Shown: positions 647 through 10,176, counted from the stretch's first letter. The stretch is 12,406 nucleotides of DNA from an uncultured Phycisphaerales bacterium (GCA_964633825.1 CAZWHE010000126.1:1-12406); one strand, 5' to 3'. Program-made: numbers and translations. Notes: a model not told the origin generated them from the sequence alone.

Positions 647-1705
647 TTACATGACCGCTGTGGCCACGACGTTCGAGGCCATTCCCATCTGGCAAGCCTG
701 GAGCCAGGCGGGACCGGCATAACCGGTGGGGCAGGTAACGCTCCATACCGTTGTTCCGGAACCGTCCGAGTTCTTGTTGAAACCGAGCTGGGGATTGGCG
801 ATTCCGAGTGTGATGCCGAGCTGGGGAACGTTAACGCTTCCCGTACCGGTCGTGCTGTAGACCAGGTAGGTCATGGTCGTGGCTGTACCGTTGGTCACGG
901 TGAAAGTAACGTTCTGTCCGCCGACGATCGGGTCGGGGGAGACGGCCAGGGTGTAAGCCGTACCGCCGCCATCCACTTCCCAGTTGTCGTAGGATCCCAT
1001 GGCCCAGGCGCCGATGCCGAATTCCGTACCCGTGATTCCGAGAGCCAGGGCGCCGGTGTTATCGTGATGCTGGTCCACGGTTCCGTTGAAGTCATTGTCG
1101 ATGTCCACATTCAGAGTGTCACCGCCGTTGGACATGTACATGGTGACTTGCGCGGTCTGGACGGGGGTCGTGAGATCCTGATAATACTGGGTTCCCCAGC
1201 CGCCGCCGTTGCCGGAACTGTAGAAGAAGATCCGGTCATAGTACCCGTCGTCATTATTGTCCTGGATCTTGGTGTAGAGCCACGTCGTGCTTCCGGAGGT
1301 GGCGCCCATGATGAGGGCGACATGAGGGCCGGACGAGCCTGACGGAGCCACAAGATCGATCTTCATGGTGGCGTCCGTGTGCGCCATGGAAGCGGAGTTG
1401 TGGAGCATGTAGCTCCATCCCGAGGACAGGTTGCCCATCCCGTGATTGCTGGAGATAGCCATGTCTCCAGTCCACTCGGTCCAGTCGGCTCCCATGTTCG
1501 TTCCGCTGGCACGGTTGAAATCGTCCGACCAGGTGGCACGCCCCGGATTCAGGCCGGCCTGCTGGGCGGCCATACCGGGAAAGGGAGCCGAAAATGAGGG
1601 TGGGTTGGCATCCACGGGCAGGTCGCTGTTGGCTGCGGTTTGAGCGTAAGCTCCGACTGCGAGTATTCCGATGAAACAGAGGATTAAGAATAATTGTTTG
1701 TGCAT
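647..1705 (-). CDS. Secreted hypothetical protein, 352 aa, with signal peptide; Gly/Thr/Asn-rich, probably beta-rich
   Basis: ATG at 1703-1705 preceded by GGGAGA on the minus strand. N-terminus MHKQLFLILCFIGILAVGAYAQ is a classic signal peptide. The long ORF is in the same direction as its terminator hairpin. No family could be assigned from sequence alone. Confidence 0.7.
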   Translation of the reverse strand: MHKQLFLILCFIGILAVGAYAQTAANSDLPVDANPPSFSAPFPGMAAQQAGLNPGRATWSDDFNRASGTNMGADWTEWTGDMAISSNHGMGNLSSGWSYMLHNSASMAHTDATMKIDLVAPSGSSGPHVALIMGATSGSTTWLYTKIQDNNDDGYYDRIFFYSSGNGGGWGTQYYQDLTTPVQTAQVTMYMSNGGDTLNVDIDNDFNGTVDQHHDNTGALALGITGTEFGIGAWAMGSYDNWEVDGGGTAYTLAVSPDPIVGGQNVTFTVTNGTATTMTYLVYSTTGTGSVNVPQLGITLGIANPQLGFNKNSDGSGTTVWSVTCPTGYAGPAWLQACQMGMASNVVATAVM

Positions 1706-4370: not shown

Positions 4371-5447
4371 ATGGCGACAACACGGGATCGAATAGCGTTT
4401 CTCCTCTGGGTCCTGATCGTTATCCCGGGCTTTACTTCCTTGTCGAGCGCCAAGGATTCGGGGCCGGCCGTCGGATCGGTCGCGCCCGAAATCGGACCAT
4501 GCCAGTGGCTTCAGAAAGAAAAGGATCGCTCCACCAAGATCGCTGAGCTTCGGGGGATGGTCGTCCTGATCCACACCTTTGCAGTGGGTTGCTTTCCGTG
4601 AGAAAGCAAGGGCATTCCGCTGGTAGCGGAAACGGTGAATGCCAACGGCGACAGGGGGATCACGGCGATCTCGCTCACGGCCAACAACCCCGAGCTGAAG
4701 TCGATTGTTAAGAAAAACAATGTGAAGCACGCCATTGCCCTGATGTCAGCGATTACGAAAACGTGCCCCTATGTGGATGTCGGCAAGAACGGGTTCACCT
4801 ACGTATTCGTTGTCGGGCGGGACGGAAGAATCTTTTGGAGAGGAAACCAAACGGTCAAGGAGAAGGATTTCCTCAAGGCGGTCGGAAAAGCGCTGGAAAC
4901 GAAAACGATCCCGGCGTTCGAGAGGACTCTCGATCCCGTCCTTGATGATGCTGTCTCCATGTACAATGATTTCAGGTTCAGCGAAAGCCGCAAGGCCGGG
5001 CAAAAAATCTTTGACAAACATTCGCGGAGATCCGGCGGGGACTCCGCCGGGATTGCCGAGGATGCGGCCTTTCTCATCGAACAAATCGACGATTTTTCAG
5101 AAAAGCTTTTCCTTCGCATGGAGCTGGCCGTGGAGACCAAGGCCGGAATCCCTTTTGTCGAGTCACTGGACATGCTCACCACCGGTTTCGCAAAAAGCGA
5201 TGCAGCCGAGAAGGCGCGGGAGCTGACGCGGAAGGCCGGCGAAGACAGCCGGTTCGCATCGGAGATCAAGGCCGCAAGGGCCTGGCTCGACCTGGTCAAG
5301 AAACGGCCCGTCATCTTTTCCGAGAGCGGGAACAGGGCCTCCAGAGCGTTCGCCAAGAAACTCAGGAAGTTCATAAAGAGCTATGGGGGATTGACGGCGG
5401 CCGTTGAGGCCGAAAAACTCCTGAAACGTGCCGGCGGCCGAGGCTGA
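4371..5447 (+). CDS. Thioredoxin-fold (TlpA/ResA/redoxin-like) thiol-disulfide oxidoreductase. Candidate selenoprotein with Sec encoded by the in-frame TGA at 4599-4601 (active-site motif C-F-P-U) and a ~170-aa helical C-terminal extension. The track splits it into 4371-4601 and 4635-5447
   Basis: Both track ORFs are in the same frame (4371 and 4635 both ≡ 0 mod 3) with no other stop between them. The N-terminal part has a signal/anchor (IAFLLWVLIVIPGFTSLSSA) then G.VAPE...L..LRGMVVLIHTFAVGCFP-TGA. The read-through continues ESKGIPLVAETVNANGDRGITAISLTANNPELKSIVKKNNVKHAIALMSA...YVDVGKNGFTYVFVVGRDGRIFWRG, which is the remainder of a TlpA-type thioredoxin fold. A fold split exactly at the CxxC position is only sensible if TGA encodes Sec. 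SD GGAGA lies 6 nt before the ATG at 4371. Confidence 0.6.
4611..4643 (+). promoter_or_regulatory. Putative bacterial SECIS stem-loop downstream of the in-frame UGA of the thioredoxin-like gene
   Basis: The outer 7-bp stem GGCATTC/GAATGCC starts 9 nt after the UGA. Inside it, an apical hairpin UUCCGC-UGGUA-GCGGAA (4615-4631) starts 13 nt after the UGA, with G and U in the loop as in known bSECIS elements. Structure is inferred by eye; no energy calculation was done. Confidence 0.45.
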
Positions 5448-6781
5448 TGGGGGAGAAGCGGATAATCAACCGCTCGCCGAGAGAGGGCCGGCGTGAATGC
5501 GGCGTTTGGGGGATTTGTCTTGTTCTGTTGGCGGCCGTAACAGCCGCTCCCGCGCCTGTCGAATGGCTCCTGGTCAAGTCCCGGTGGACCGGTCCGCGCG
5601 CTCCCCATGTGGACGGGGTCTGCGAGATCGCCCTTCCCGATGACGAGCGGTTCATGCCTTCCTTTGTGGGGGACGCGGGTTACAAATCTCTTCGGTTGAA
5701 GTTTCGGGATCACGACGAAGGCCCGCGCACTTTCATCGTGAAGTGGACGCCCGGCGAGACGGGCGTGGAATCATTCTCCCTTCTCCTCGACGGCCGCGAG
5801 GTGGGAAGATCCCGGACCCTCGACGCCGCCGGCCTGGTGATGAGCGACTTCGTCGATGTTTTTCGCTTCAGTGTTTCGCCGAAAGGGGACCACGTTCTCG
5901 AGATCAGGCACGAGAGCGGGAACGGCCTCAACTTTCGAAGCTTTCTCTACAGCGACGAAGAGCGGCCTCTTCCTCCCGGGGCCGTTCGGTCGAAAAAGGA
6001 GTATGAAAAAGCACTGGGAGGCCGGGGAATCCGTCTGGAGACGCAGAACCTCGTGTTGTATGCGCCCTCCAAGCACGCGGGTTATGCGCGAAAGCTTGTC
6101 AAAGCCCTCGACGAAGCCTCTCTCCTGCTCAACGAGATCCACGGCGGAAAGCCGCCATACAGGATTTCCGTCGAGCATTTTCCCAAAGAGAGCCCGCGCG
6201 GTTTCGGAGGGGTCTCTACGGACGGCGTCGTTTCCTATCCCATTGACAACCTGAACGACCGGAGCGCGGAGTTCCTTCGCCACAAGACGCCGCGCATCCT
6301 GGGATACGTGGAGGAGATGTGCCACATCTACAACAAAGGGGATTTTTACTGCAGGGGGACCTACGAAGCATTGGGGATGTGCGTTTCCCGGCACACGGTG
6401 GAACGCGCGGCATCTTGTCCCCCTTTCCGGGCGAAGCTCGAGAGGTGGAGGCGTCAAGAGAAAGAGACATTTGAAGACTACGTTTCGTTCCGGTTCAAGA
6501 ATCCGGGCCAATACGAGTGGGGGATCTTCTACACCCGCATTCTCGTTCACCTTTTAGAGGGATATGCGGATTCCTATCAAGGCGATTTTTGGAAGGACTT
6601 CTTCAGCGAGCTTCGCAAGCGGAATTTTCCCCTGCAAAAGGCTCATAAAAAAGATCGCCTCGATGTGTACGCCCGGATCATGGGCGCTCTTCTCGATCGA
6701 GATATTCAAAAGGAATGGCGCGAGCTCGGCATCCGCCATGACGGCGATAAACCGTGGGGATGGAAGACATACGACCGATGA
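5447..6781 (+). CDS. Secreted hypothetical protein (444 aa), translationally coupled to the upstream thioredoxin-like gene (TGATG overlap)
   Basis: Stop TGA at 5445-5447 overlaps the ATG at 5447-5449. The basic N-terminus then hydrophobic VWGICLVLLAAVTAAPAP suggests a signal peptide. Long ORF with several conserved Cys/His (CHIYNKGDFYCRG). No family recognised. The minus-strand 259-aa overlap is judged a shadow ORF. Confidence 0.6.
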   Translation: MGEKRIINRSPREGRRECGVWGICLVLLAAVTAAPAPVEWLLVKSRWTGPRAPHVDGVCEIALPDDERFMPSFVGDAGYKSLRLKFRDHDEGPRTFIVKWTPGETGVESFSLLLDGREVGRSRTLDAAGLVMSDFVDVFRFSVSPKGDHVLEIRHESGNGLNFRSFLYSDEERPLPPGAVRSKKEYEKALGGRGIRLETQNLVLYAPSKHAGYARKLVKALDEASLLLNEIHGGKPPYRISVEHFPKESPRGFGGVSTDGVVSYPIDNLNDRSAEFLRHKTPRILGYVEEMCHIYNKGDFYCRGTYEALGMCVSRHTVERAASCPPFRAKLERWRRQEKETFEDYVSFRFKNPGQYEWGIFYTRILVHLLEGYADSYQGDFWKDFFSELRKRNFPLQKAHKKDRLDVYARIMGALLDRDIQKEWRELGIRHDGDKPWGWKTYDR

Positions 6782-6835: not shown

Positions 6836-6900
6836 TCATTTCATTCGGAAGCGACGCCTATTCTATCGTTTGTCTCGTTAATATTCGAATGGAGGAAGAC

Positions 6901-8241
6901 ATGAAAAAAACAGCGGCGGCAACAGCGGTGGTGTTTCTCTTTTTATGCGCGGGCGGGCTTCGAGCCGACGTTCCCGATCTCGAAGCCGGGGTCTTGATCC
7001 AAGACGGCACCGAGCCCCTTGAAGTGAACCTTCACTCGTCCTGCACCGTCGTGGACTGGAACAACGACGGCAAGAAAGACCTTGTGGTCGGCCAGTTCTA
7101 CTACGGAAACATCTGGCTCTTCCTCAATCAAGGAACGGACGCCAATCCCGTTTTCAACGGGGGCTCTCTCATTCAATCGAACGGATCTCCCATTACCACC
7201 ACCTACGGGTGATGTATCGGCGCGAGTCCGCGAGTAGTGGACTGGAACAATGACGGCAAGAAAGACCTCATCACGGGCGAGTACAACGGCAACGTCAGGA
7301 TCTACCTCAACACCGGCACCGATGCCGATCCGGTCTTCAGCGGGCACAACCTGCTGCAGGTGAACGGTTCGACTTTCGATGCGGGCTATTACTCCATGCC
7401 TTACATCGTCGATTGGAACGAAGACGGAAAGAAGGACGTCATCTGCGGGGAAAACGCCGGCGACATCCAGCTTCTGATCAACACGGGGACGGATGCCAGC
7501 CCGGTTTTCACAAGCATCGTCCGCGTCCAGGACGGGGGGAGCAATCTCGACGTGGGCAGCCGCTCCAGCCCGGTATCGGCGGACTGGAATGATGACGGCA
7601 AAAAGGACCTGCTCGTGGGCGAGACCTACGGCAGCATCAAATACTATGAGAACACGGGCACCAACGCCAATCCCGCTTTTAACGGCTCTGTCAGCTTGAC
7701 CGCCGGAGGTTCGCCCATCGACGTGGGATACTACCCGCGCTTCGAGGTGGCCGACTGGGACAACGACGGCACGCCCGACCTCCTTTCCGGTTTCTACGAT
7801 TATTACAACGATCCCAAAGCGGGCGTCTATTATTTCCACGCCGCCGGGGGGGTTGACTCGCTCACGACGGACGTGAACACGATCTCTCAAGCATTCGGAG
7901 GGGACGTTATTTTCTACATGGACGCGGGACTCGCTTACGGGGGGCGGGAATACTTCCTCCTGGGAACGGCCTCGGGCACATCGCCGGGAACGGCCCTGCC
8001 GGGCGGGGCGGTCCTGCCGCTCAACCGCGATGCGGTCATGAACTATATCATCGCCCACTACAACACGCCCGAGCTCTATGAATTCCGGGGAACGATGTAC
8101 AACACAGGCGTGGCCAAGGCCATGCTCTCCGTATCGGGAAGCATTCCGCTGCCCGTGGGCACGGTTTTGAACTTCGCTTTTACTACGGAGAACCCTTACG
8201 ATTTCCAGTCGAACGCCGTGTCGGTTGAAATCGTTAATTGA
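6901..8241 (+). CDS. Secreted FG-GAP/VCBS-like repeat protein with an in-frame TGA at 7210-7212. Candidate selenocysteine read-through (446 aa) or a gene disrupted by a nonsense mutation. The track splits it into 6889-7212 and 7237-8241
   Basis: SD GGAGG 5 nt before the ATG at 6901. Signal peptide MKKTAAATAVVFLFLCAGGLRA. At least five ~62-aa repeats with the FG-GAP calcium-binding signature DWN(N/D/E)DGKKDL...G......N.GT(D/N)A.P.F. Both track ORFs share one frame (≡ 1 mod 3) and the stretch between TGA and the annotated GTG (CIGASPRVV) is open and continues repeat 2 exactly. The upstream fragment alone would be a 103-aa protein with 1.5 repeats. The downstream piece has no SD. Confidence 0.5.
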
Positions 8242-8269: not shown

Positions 8270-8312
8270 AAGAGGCCGTTGAAAAGTCGATCCGGCTTTT
8301 TCAACGGCCTCT
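8270..8312. terminator. Bidirectional intrinsic terminator between convergent genes: perfect 17-bp stem AAGAGGCCGTTGAAAAG / CTTTTCAACGGCCTCTT with a 9-nt loop
   Basis: Read directly (8270-8286 pairs with 8296-8312). Flanked by T on the plus side (cTTTgat) and by an A/T-rich tract on the other. Lies between the stop at 8239-8241 (plus gene) and the stop at 8320-8322 (minus gene). Confidence 0.7.
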
Positions 8313-8319
8313 TTGATGA

Positions 8320-10176
8320 TTATTGCTGGCGCACCTCGATGAAGAAAGTGAAGCGGCCGTCCTCGTCGAGCACTGTTGAGCCCGTGGCCCGGTCGAAACT
8401 CGACAGGATGCCGAACAGCGCCCGCCCCAGCCGGCTCAGTCTTTCCATGTCGGGATCGAGGGCCGAGAGGAGCTCGCCGTCAAGGAAAAAGAGGCCGCAC
8501 CCCGACAGGGCGATCTTGCCGCACTTGTCCCATTCTCTCTCCCATGAATCGAGGTTCAGATGGACGAGCTCCACGGCGCGGGATTGAATCGGGCCCGCAT
8601 CGGAAACGGTCTCGTAAGAGAGCGCGCGCCCGTTGCCGTGAACGGCCGTGATCGTTTCCGTCACGCCGGAGCGGACGGAGGATGCGATGAGGAAGTCGCC
8701 CGCCAGGGCGAAGGTCGGCGAGGGCAGGGGAAGGCTGATCACGCTGTCGAGGTCGACCCCCATGAGCTCAACGTTTTCGTGGCGGTCGGATATCGCCATG
8801 CCGCTGATCACTCCCCCTGTAAAGGGCGCCCACGCGCCGGCATCCCATTCAACAAAGCGGGAGATGAAGGTTTTCACTTTTTCCTTGTCCGTGACGCGCG
8901 CCAGGACCACTGTTCTCGGAAAAGGCCAGCTTGAGCCTTCGTCCTCTGCCGGAAGCCAGGCTGCGGCCAGGGAACGGCCCAGATGGGGAAAGAGATCGAC
9001 GGCCGGATCGAGCCCGGTTGCCCCGCTGAAATCCTGCGCGAGGCTCTCCATCTTCCGGCCGCACCGCGGAGCCGCCGTTTTCAGCAAGAATCCCATCGAA
9101 TCGAGAATCATCTCCGGAGGCGCGCCCGCTTCATAGGTGAGGAGTGCGTTTTCGGGGAACCATAGGGACAAGGGCCCTTCGATCGGCGAGAGGGATTCGA
9201 GAAGCCCGGGAACGGCCTCTTCCACCTCGTCTTCGAGGATCTGGCCGGTCATCCAGGTTCGAATGCCCTTCCGCCCCACGTCGCGCGTGATCCCGACGGC
9301 GCCCATCCAGCCGAGACAGGTCTTGGCCAGGCGTTTTCCCGTGGCTGAAAGCATGCCGCACGATTCGATCTCTTTTGCGAGACGGGGGCAGTTCATGTAA
9401 ACGCGCACGCCGGTGAAAGGGGGGAAAGAGGACATGACTTTCTGAAAGCCCTCGCGTTCGGCCAGGGACTCCGGCAACGGCCTATTGTCGAACACGGACG
9501 CCGCGGCATTTAGTGCGTCGATTCCGGAAGGCGGGCTGAGAATGAGCCACCCTTCGGCTTCGCAGCCCGTGAACAATATCTTTCCATCCCAGCTCCGGAT
9601 CGAGAACAACTCTTCATCATGGCCCGGCTCAGATTCGCTCAAAAAGGCGCCGTCAAAGCGGCTGACAATCCAGGCCAGCGAAGGGACAGGATTGGCGGGA
9701 GCGTCTCCCTTGGTTCCCTTAAAGGCGAAAACCGGCACGGTCCCGCCCGGTCCCGGGACCAATCCGACCACCATGCGCTCGCCGGCAAAAGCCTGCAGGC
9801 CGCTTCTGAGCTCCGACCCTTCATCCCATGTCTCGAGGGCGTGGGAAAGAAAGGGGCATGAGCCGTCTCTGCCGCACATAAAATCGGATATTCCGTCCGA
9901 AAGGGAGACGGCCTGCGGCCAGAAACTCATCCGGCTGAGCCTGTCCAGAGTATGGACGGGCCGAAAGAGCTCCAGATAAAACAGGGTATCGGCCGGAAAG
10001 GCCTTCGCCGGGTCGATGACGGCGCCGTCCGCGGCCCCGTTGCCGGCGCCGTCGATTAAAGTCCGGGTCTCCTCTGCGATTGCCGGGGCTGCAGGTCCGA
10101 TAAGGGCATACAGCAGGGCGCACCCGATCAACACAGCCGCCGAAAGGTTTCCTATTTCTTTTCTTCTATTGTTCAT
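8320..10176 (-). CDS. Large secreted/periplasmic hypothetical protein (618 aa) with signal peptide; last gene of the GntR-SPFH operon
   Basis: ATG at 10174-10176 preceded by AAGGAGAAGG. N-terminus MNNRRKEIGNLSAAVLIGCALLYALIGPAAPAIA. One long uninterrupted ORF. The opposite-strand ORFs inside it are short. Only a 24-nt gap to the upstream SPFH gene. Confidence 0.75.
   Translation of the reverse strand: MNNRRKEIGNLSAAVLIGCALLYALIGPAAPAIAEETRTLIDGAGNGAADGAVIDPAKAFPADTLFYLELFRPVHTLDRLSRMSFWPQAVSLSDGISDFMCGRDGSCPFLSHALETWDEGSELRSGLQAFAGERMVVGLVPGPGGTVPVFAFKGTKGDAPANPVPSLAWIVSRFDGAFLSESEPGHDEELFSIRSWDGKILFTGCEAEGWLILSPPSGIDALNAAASVFDNRPLPESLAEREGFQKVMSSFPPFTGVRVYMNCPRLAKEIESCGMLSATGKRLAKTCLGWMGAVGITRDVGRKGIRTWMTGQILEDEVEEAVPGLLESLSPIEGPLSLWFPENALLTYEAGAPPEMILDSMGFLLKTAAPRCGRKMESLAQDFSGATGLDPAVDLFPHLGRSLAAAWLPAEDEGSSWPFPRTVVLARVTDKEKVKTFISRFVEWDAGAWAPFTGGVISGMAISDRHENVELMGVDLDSVISLPLPSPTFALAGDFLIASSVRSGVTETITAVHGNGRALSYETVSDAGPIQSRAVELVHLNLDSWEREWDKCGKIALSGCGLFFLDGELLSALDPDMERLSRLGRALFGILSSFDRATGSTVLDEDGRFTFFIEVRQQ

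Follow-up and report, generated by a model that had tools for sequence, protein, structure and literature searches.

An In-Frame TGA in an FG-GAP Repeat Gene

The stretch of DNA analysed, hereafter the window, is a 12,406 bp metagenome-assembled contig from an uncultured Phycisphaerales bacterium (GCA_964633825.1, CAZWHE010000126.1:1-12406). On the + strand, positions 6901-8241 corresponded to a single reading frame of 446 codons followed by a terminal TGA stop at 8239-8241, and interrupted only by one internal TGA at 7210-7212 (SPITTTYG*CIGASPRVVDWNNDGKKDL). A Shine-Dalgarno-like GGAGGA (6891-6896, + strand) was located 4 nt upstream of the ATG at 6901, which favours this start over the ATG at 6889. 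The part upstream of the internal TGA was 103 aa long. Its N-terminus (6901-6966, + strand; MKKTAAATAVVFLFLCAGGLRA, likely cleaved before DVPD) showed a Lys-Lys n-region, a hydrophobic core and an A-x-A-like end, from which a Sec-type signal peptide was inferred. The downstream ORF, 7237-8241 (334 aa), started at a GTG inside the conserved VVDW strand.

The read-through protein matched Pfam FG-GAP_3 (PF13517) in four stretches with an E-value of 6e-25 (88.1 bits against a gathering cut-off of 26.9), and FG-GAP with 29.3 bits against 22.1. Five FG-GAP/VCBS repeats (7030-7836, + strand) carried DWNxDGxxD calcium-loop motifs starting at residues 52, 114, 171, 228 and 285, corresponding to spacings of 62, 57, 57 and 57 residues. 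The repeat array therefore runs across the stop, and the U-C-I-G stretch is a 4-5 residue insertion specific to the junction of repeats 1 and 2. The TGA at 7210-7212 (+ strand) corresponds to residue 104 in the motif Y-G-U-C-I-G, and is directly followed by a Cys codon (TGT, 7213-7215, + strand). The sequence-only reading had proposed either a novel selenoprotein or a fresh pseudogene at this site, and its observation of an in-frame TGA inside a continuous repeat array was confirmed. It had also pointed to a Cys (SSC) at the equivalent junction of repeat 1, but this Cys was not conserved in relatives.

TGA is a normal stop in the window, as it terminated seven of the ten confident genes, including this one. 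The only other internal TGA was found at 4599-4601 in a thioredoxin-like gene (4371-5447), in the motif GCFP-TGA-ES. This TGA occupies the position of the second Cys of CxxC in relatives: two full-length related proteins (P0122 and P0124) have CVPC and CASC, respectively.

Conservation of the TGA and Cys-Containing Relatives

A search with the read-through protein returned over 2000 relatives (related proteins are numbered P below). About 100 of the best 120 were 320-340 aa long and covered exactly the last 75% of the query, indicating that they were all called from the same point as the downstream ORF of the window. We fetched 80 related loci (numbered L below) from species-representative genomes and mapped the TGA column of the window onto each of them. 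Fifty-eight loci carried an in-frame stop in this same loop, which was always TGA and never TAA or TAG. Forty-seven had TGA at the same column, in the motif (Y)G-U-C-[ILMQVT]-G-[AS]-x-P-[RQH]-V-V-D-W, and eleven more had it one position away. Of these eleven, four had C-U-G, including a literal G-C-U-G in L015 and L020 and D-C-U-G in L021, and seven had a single U (G-U-[LQ]-G, Y-U-M-G). In loci L001-L007, the tblastn matches to query residues 1-445 ran across the TGA. The protein sequence was conserved on both sides of the stop, at 36-57% identity, with equivalent signal peptides upstream. In addition, 117 metagenome loci carried the same motif with an open upstream frame.

The genome loci came from at least 12 phylum-level lineages, and included Phycisphaerales and other Planctomycetota (among them a Kuenenia MAG), Victivallales, Verrucomicrobiota, KSB1, Calditrichaceae, Nitrospirota, WOR-3, Fermentibacteria, Stahlbacteria, Sumerlaeia, Desulfobacteraceae, Ignavibacteriaceae and others. 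One Phycisphaerales MAG had at least seven loci, whereas L029 carried three and L034 two tandem copies, each with its own TGA.

Other relatives had Cys in this loop within uninterrupted ORFs. P0051 (434 aa) had S-C-N-L-G, with Cys at the U column, and P0117 and eleven loci had G-G-C-[LM]-G or similar. Counting back from the Asp of the D-W motif, the single Cys and the single Sec of the one-chalcogen forms both lie at -9, the position of the Cys in U-C, whose TGY codon was invariant in the two alignments examined. The U of U-C, at -10, is an added second chalcogen. The family therefore contains Cys-only, Sec-only, Sec-Cys and Cys-Sec versions of one loop, which is the pattern expected for a functional Sec/Cys site.

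A Hairpin Downstream of the TGA

The segment 7225-7243 (+ strand), inside the coding sequence, folded into a hairpin. The coordinates given by the sequence-only reading were right, but the structure is better drawn as a 7 bp stem (AGUCCGC/GUGGACU, with one G.U) closed by a 5 nt loop GAGUA, with 19 nt between the UGA and the apical loop. Its free energy was -13.2 kcal/mol (z = -4.2), and none of 200 shuffles folded as well, although the 46 nt stretch starting from the UGA folded no better than shuffles (z = -1.55). The published bSECIS model asks for a loop of 3-9 nt, a stem of 4-16 bp, a G in the first two loop positions, 16-37 nt between the UGA and the loop, and a minimum free energy of -7.5 kcal/mol or less (PMC13188914), and the hairpin satisfied all four criteria. 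The hairpin of the thioredoxin-like gene started 9 nt after its UGA and not 13 nt, as had been claimed in the sequence-only reading, but both genes can place 19 nt between the UGA and an apical loop. A scan of the window against Rfam at gathering thresholds gave nothing, and no model for this element appears to be in that library. No terminator was found by a scan after the gene, although a long inverted repeat is visible there.

The hairpin recurred at the same place in relatives, with compensatory changes. On 41 distinct sequences, the five core pairs (alignment columns 18-32 to 22-28) formed in 38-41. One pair switched between AU (31), GC (7) and GU (3), and another between GC (15) and AU (9), with Fisher p-values of 5e-6 and 2e-5, respectively, although the sequences are not independent. 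Overall, 86.6% of the pair cells formed a standard pair, compared to 23-44% when the 3' partners were slid, and none of 500 shuffles reached the observed covariation score. Synonymous sites were also constrained: the wobble base of the Pro codon was A or G and never C or U, and the preceding variable codon ended in U in 38 of 41 sequences. The residue after Pro was only R, Q, H or L, and all of those codons start with C. Part of the conservation of the hairpin is at the protein level, as the stem overlaps strongly conserved codons (P-R/Q-V-V-D-W). RNAalifold gave no consensus structure on a first alignment of 46 sequences, in which five sequences (the AVAVCDW type) carried the hairpin with the 5' arm shifted by 2 nt and two had a 3 nt insertion, and it supported only a 4 bp core on a cleaner set of 42 sequences. 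We consequently relied on counting named pairs. By our reading of the latter alignment, about 34 of 42 relatives had the loop G in positions 1-2 and about 8 lacked it.

The Nitrospirota single-U form had a different hairpin (UUCAGUC-GUG-GACUGGA), and the C-U-G form had the standard hairpin about 27 nt downstream. Seven Cys-only relatives (FPRVV[YHQD]W) could not form the hairpin and used Pro codons ending in U, A, C, C, G, G and A. One Cys-only relative, L059, kept a hairpin.

Association with the Sec Machinery

In about ten related loci the gene was located beside tRNA-Sec, selD, selA or selB. ARAGORN detected tRNA-Sec within the 6 kb flanks of 7 of the 80 genome loci and in 3 metagenome loci. 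With one selC per genome of a few Mb, we estimate that about 0.2 would be expected in the roughly 0.8 Mb examined. In L019 the order was SelA (Pfam E-value 3e-153), SelB, SelD, tRNA-Sec and then this gene, starting about 30 nt later. In L013 the gene was followed by tRNA-Sec, SelA, SelD and SelB, and in L024, L063, L029, L084 and L091, SelD and tRNA-Sec were upstream. The SelD genes in L019, L024, L029 and L063 are themselves Sec-containing, with the motif VKCAG-U-ASKL. The window itself held no sel gene and no tRNA-Sec, so that the Sec competence of this organism rests on the second TGA gene and on relatives. The neighbouring genes were not conserved: a tblastn search of all other window proteins against the 80 loci found nothing, the neighbours in L081-L083 were unrelated, and no metal-resistance or transport genes were found nearby. 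The neighbours of the gene in the window therefore give no clue to its function.

Predicted Structure of the Read-Through Protein

AlphaFold2 on a 76-sequence alignment gave a confident model (pLDDT 90.7, pTM 0.77), with low confidence only at the signal peptide (below 50 for residues 1-20) and at residues 103-105, where the Sec was entered as X. The model showed five four-stranded FG-GAP units, predicted as beta-propeller blades (residues 46-74, 106-135, 166-192, 223-249 and 276-312), and a C-terminal Ig-like beta-sandwich (7837-8238, + strand; residues 313-446). The U-C pair was located immediately before strand 106-113. Foldseek matched integrin alpha, BBSome, the fungal PVL lectin and other propellers with a probability of 1.0, but a TM-score of only about 0.3. 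The C-terminal domain modelled alone (pLDDT 95.0) had no Pfam match and showed only weak, generic Ig-like beta-sandwich matches in the PDB (E > 1e-3). The fold searches suggested no enzyme, and other family members carried different C-terminal regions.

Discussion

We propose that positions 6901-8241 are one gene for a secreted selenoprotein, in which the UGA at 7210-7212 is read as selenocysteine. In this model, the hairpin 7225-7243 would recruit SelB carrying Sec-tRNA(Sec), as in other bacterial selenoprotein genes. We hold this recoding step with high confidence, although it is so far supported by computation only and both the actual Sec insertion and the export are inferred. The product would be a 446-residue precursor which, after export through the Sec pathway, would be a calcium-type FG-GAP/VCBS beta-propeller of five repeats followed by an Ig-like domain, with a vicinal Sec-Cys pair (G-U-C-I-G) in the loop just before the first strand of blade 2. 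The role of this pair is speculative. Adjacent Cys-Sec dyads are probably redox-active in thioredoxin reductase, and those listed in the 2026 catalogue of prokaryotic selenoproteins occur mostly in metal-handling bacterial proteins (PMC13188914). For an exported propeller without a redox partner nearby, our best guess is a reactive selenenylsulfide/selenolate centre on an extracytoplasmic binding protein, acting either in redox chemistry or in binding a soft metal or chalcogen. The linkage to sel genes could reflect simple co-inheritance of the trait with a main client. It is also possible, although unlikely, that the family takes part in selenium handling, the Sec-Cys (or single Sec or Cys) centre capturing or reducing an external selenium, chalcogen or soft-metal species. 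This role would explain why the gene follows selD-tRNA(Sec) directly, often in tandem copies, in several unrelated lineages, and why some Planctomycetota keep seven or more paralogues.

Among the alternatives, a programmed read-through of the UGA by a standard tRNA (Trp, Cys or Arg), or another non-Sec recoding stimulated by the hairpin, appears very unlikely. Downstream structures can stimulate read-through in general, and there is no direct evidence of Se incorporation. However, relatives substitute Cys, the hallmark of Sec sites, the hairpin matches the bSECIS model in spacing and loop, the gene lies directly after tRNA-Sec, selD, selA or selB in several lineages, and a CxxU thioredoxin-fold gene sits in the same window. 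Still less likely are two real genes, with a 103 aa secreted stub and a restart at GTG 7237 giving a 334 aa cytoplasmic protein, as shown by public gene calls, which produce 103 aa and about 330 aa products in relatives. There is no Shine-Dalgarno sequence before GTG 7237, the nine codons between the stop and the GTG (C-I-G-x-x-P-R/Q-V) are conserved as protein in all relatives, and many relatives have no start codon at a fixed place. In addition, the Cys-form relatives are single uninterrupted ORFs, the downstream piece would lack a signal peptide and one propeller blade, and the model is confident only as one chain. A fresh pseudogene, or a sequencing or assembly error, could have been suspected from a single stop in an otherwise intact frame of a metagenome-assembled contig. 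This is excluded by the presence of TGA at the same codon in 47 independent genome loci and 117 metagenome loci from many lineages and assemblies, with purifying selection on both sides and a conserved hairpin following the stop, and the 36-57% identities exclude copies of one contaminating sequence. Finally, a genetic code in which UGA is a sense codon (code 4 or 25), which two in-frame TGAs in 12 kb might suggest, is refuted by the stop-codon usage in the window, and the G+C content of 50-63% is unlike that of known UGA-reassigned lineages.

The suggestion of the sequence-only reading that the family is undescribed holds as far as we could check. None of the 119 families/subfamilies in Table 1 of the 2026 catalogue has PF13517, PF01839, FG-GAP or VCBS, and these words do not occur in its text (PMC13188914). 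The deep-Sep paper does not mention them either, full-text searches for selenoprotein or selenocysteine together with FG-GAP, VCBS or beta-propeller found nothing relevant, and NCBIfam release 20 gave only sub-threshold, unrelated hits. Public records name the truncated products "VCBS repeat-containing protein" or "FG-GAP repeat domain-containing protein" and systematically miscall the gene as a 103 aa stub plus a protein of about 330 aa. The selenoproteome sizes of Planctomycetota (Phycisphaerae), Lentisphaerota, Verrucomicrobiota, KSB1, Calditrichota, WOR-3, Nitrospirota and others are therefore underestimated. The recurring selD-tRNA(Sec)-gene arrangement makes the gene a candidate main user of the Sec trait in these organisms and gives a testable lead for function, and the conserved motif and hairpin provide a simple DNA signature for annotation pipelines.

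The decoding mechanism proposed here is the standard bacterial one. As in bacterial selenoprotein genes such as those of FdhA and the Sec-containing SelD, a UGA lies inside the ORF and a stem-loop lies in the coding sequence, here with 19 nt from the UGA to a small apical loop that starts with G, Cys-containing homologues exist, and the genes are near selA, selB, selC or selD in some genomes. Most known prokaryotic selenoproteins are thioredoxin-fold or other redox enzymes, whereas the present protein is predicted to be an exported FG-GAP/VCBS beta-propeller, with many paralogues in some genomes. The pair resembles the C-terminal Gly-Cys-Sec-Gly redox centre that mammalian thioredoxin reductase appears to carry, with adjacent Cys and Sec flanked by Gly, and it could form a vicinal selenenylsulfide. 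This is a resemblance only, as the order is U-C in the window, the motif is internal (residues 103-107) in a propeller loop and not on a flexible C-terminal tail, no flavoprotein or oxidoreductase domain or evident electron donor is present, the inferred location is extracytoplasmic, and relatives with a single Cys or a single Sec exist. An adjacent Cys-Sec dyad is shared with the bacterial selenoproteins listed as metal-handling (CopZ-family GxUC and CU forms, MbdU, HgcA, MerB-like SaoL and SaoC; PMC13188914), but without sequence or fold relationship. With FG-GAP/VCBS beta-propeller proteins such as the integrin alpha head, the fungal PVL lectin and bacterial VCBS proteins, none of which we found reported to contain Sec, the protein shares the PF13517/PF01839 repeats with DxNxDGxxD calcium loops, the predicted propeller fold, and a following Ig-like domain as in the integrin alpha "thigh". 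It differs from them by having five repeats rather than seven, and by the 4-5 residue insertion carrying Sec-Cys at the junction of blades 1 and 2.

Organization of the region surrounding the FG-GAP gene

Three large ORFs of the window, at positions 647-1705 (-), 5447-6781 (+) and 8320-10176 (-), encoding 352, 444 and 618 aa, respectively, showed no Pfam match; two of them have signal-peptide-like N-termini. In the segment from position 1601-2200, the G+C content dropped to 40%, as compared to 50-63% elsewhere. At position 5444-5450, the TGA stop (5445-5447) of the thioredoxin-like gene shares base 5447 with the ATG (5447-5449) of the next gene, the 444 aa ORF 5447-6781. This 1-nt overlap suggests that the two genes belong to one operon. 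The FG-GAP gene follows after a gap of 119 nt in which two promoter-like sites were found. Downstream, a near-perfect inverted repeat of 16-17 bp (AAGAGGCCGTTGAAAAG ... CTTTTTCAACGGCCTCTT) was visible at position 8270-8314, between the convergent genes 6901-8241 (+) and 8320-10176 (-). It is probably a bidirectional terminator, which was missed by the consensus terminator scan, probably because its loop is about 10 nt.

Organization of the related loci

In four of the related loci, L029 (2407-7500), L034 (2-7623), L084 and L091, selD(Sec) and tRNA-Sec were followed directly by tandem arrays of two or three FG-GAP selenoprotein genes, each with its own TGA and hairpin. The SelD homologues located next to tRNA-Sec in a Victivallales MAG (locus L013, 5958-7145) and in a Planctomycetota MAG (locus L023, 9997-11592) carry an N-terminal Cys-rich extension (…LGHC[VI]C[ED][PV]R[KQ]PCPCD…) ahead of the AIRS domains. 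In L023, the neighbouring FG-GAP protein, with a size of 838 aa, has neither Sec nor Cys in the loop.

The Nitrospirota relatives (loci L032, L037, L052 and L074, and also L031 and L027) showed a single Sec, in the motif G-U-[LQ]-G-A-Y-P-S-V-V-D-W, and a different hairpin, UUCAGUC-GUG-GACUGGA. The Cys-containing relative at locus L059 (A-C-Q-G) keeps that hairpin. It is possible that this reflects a recent Sec-to-Cys change, or alternatively a stem that the S-V-V-D-W-N codons favour by themselves.

In loci L081-L083, which are relatives of the protein P0012, the public gene calls split the homologue into a 103-aa and a 330-aa gene, and the NCBI names for the truncated products are "VCBS repeat-containing protein" or "FG-GAP repeat domain-containing protein". 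This looks like a systematic annotation error across databases.

A second likely selenoprotein gene

The gene at position 4371-5447 (+), with a TGA at 4599-4601, likely encodes a second selenoprotein, an exported thioredoxin/redoxin-fold protein with the motif G-C-F-P-U-E-S (CxxU). Only four relatives were found. The full-length relatives P0122 and P0124 have CVPC and CASC, respectively, at the same place. The TGA is followed by a hairpin, GGCAUUC...GAAUGCC, the inner stem of which, CCGC/GCGG, can place a UGGUA loop 19 nt after the UGA. In comparison with the NCBIfam models, weak hits were observed to ResA and, in the C-terminal half of the protein, to the VPGUxxT thioredoxin-like selenoprotein family.
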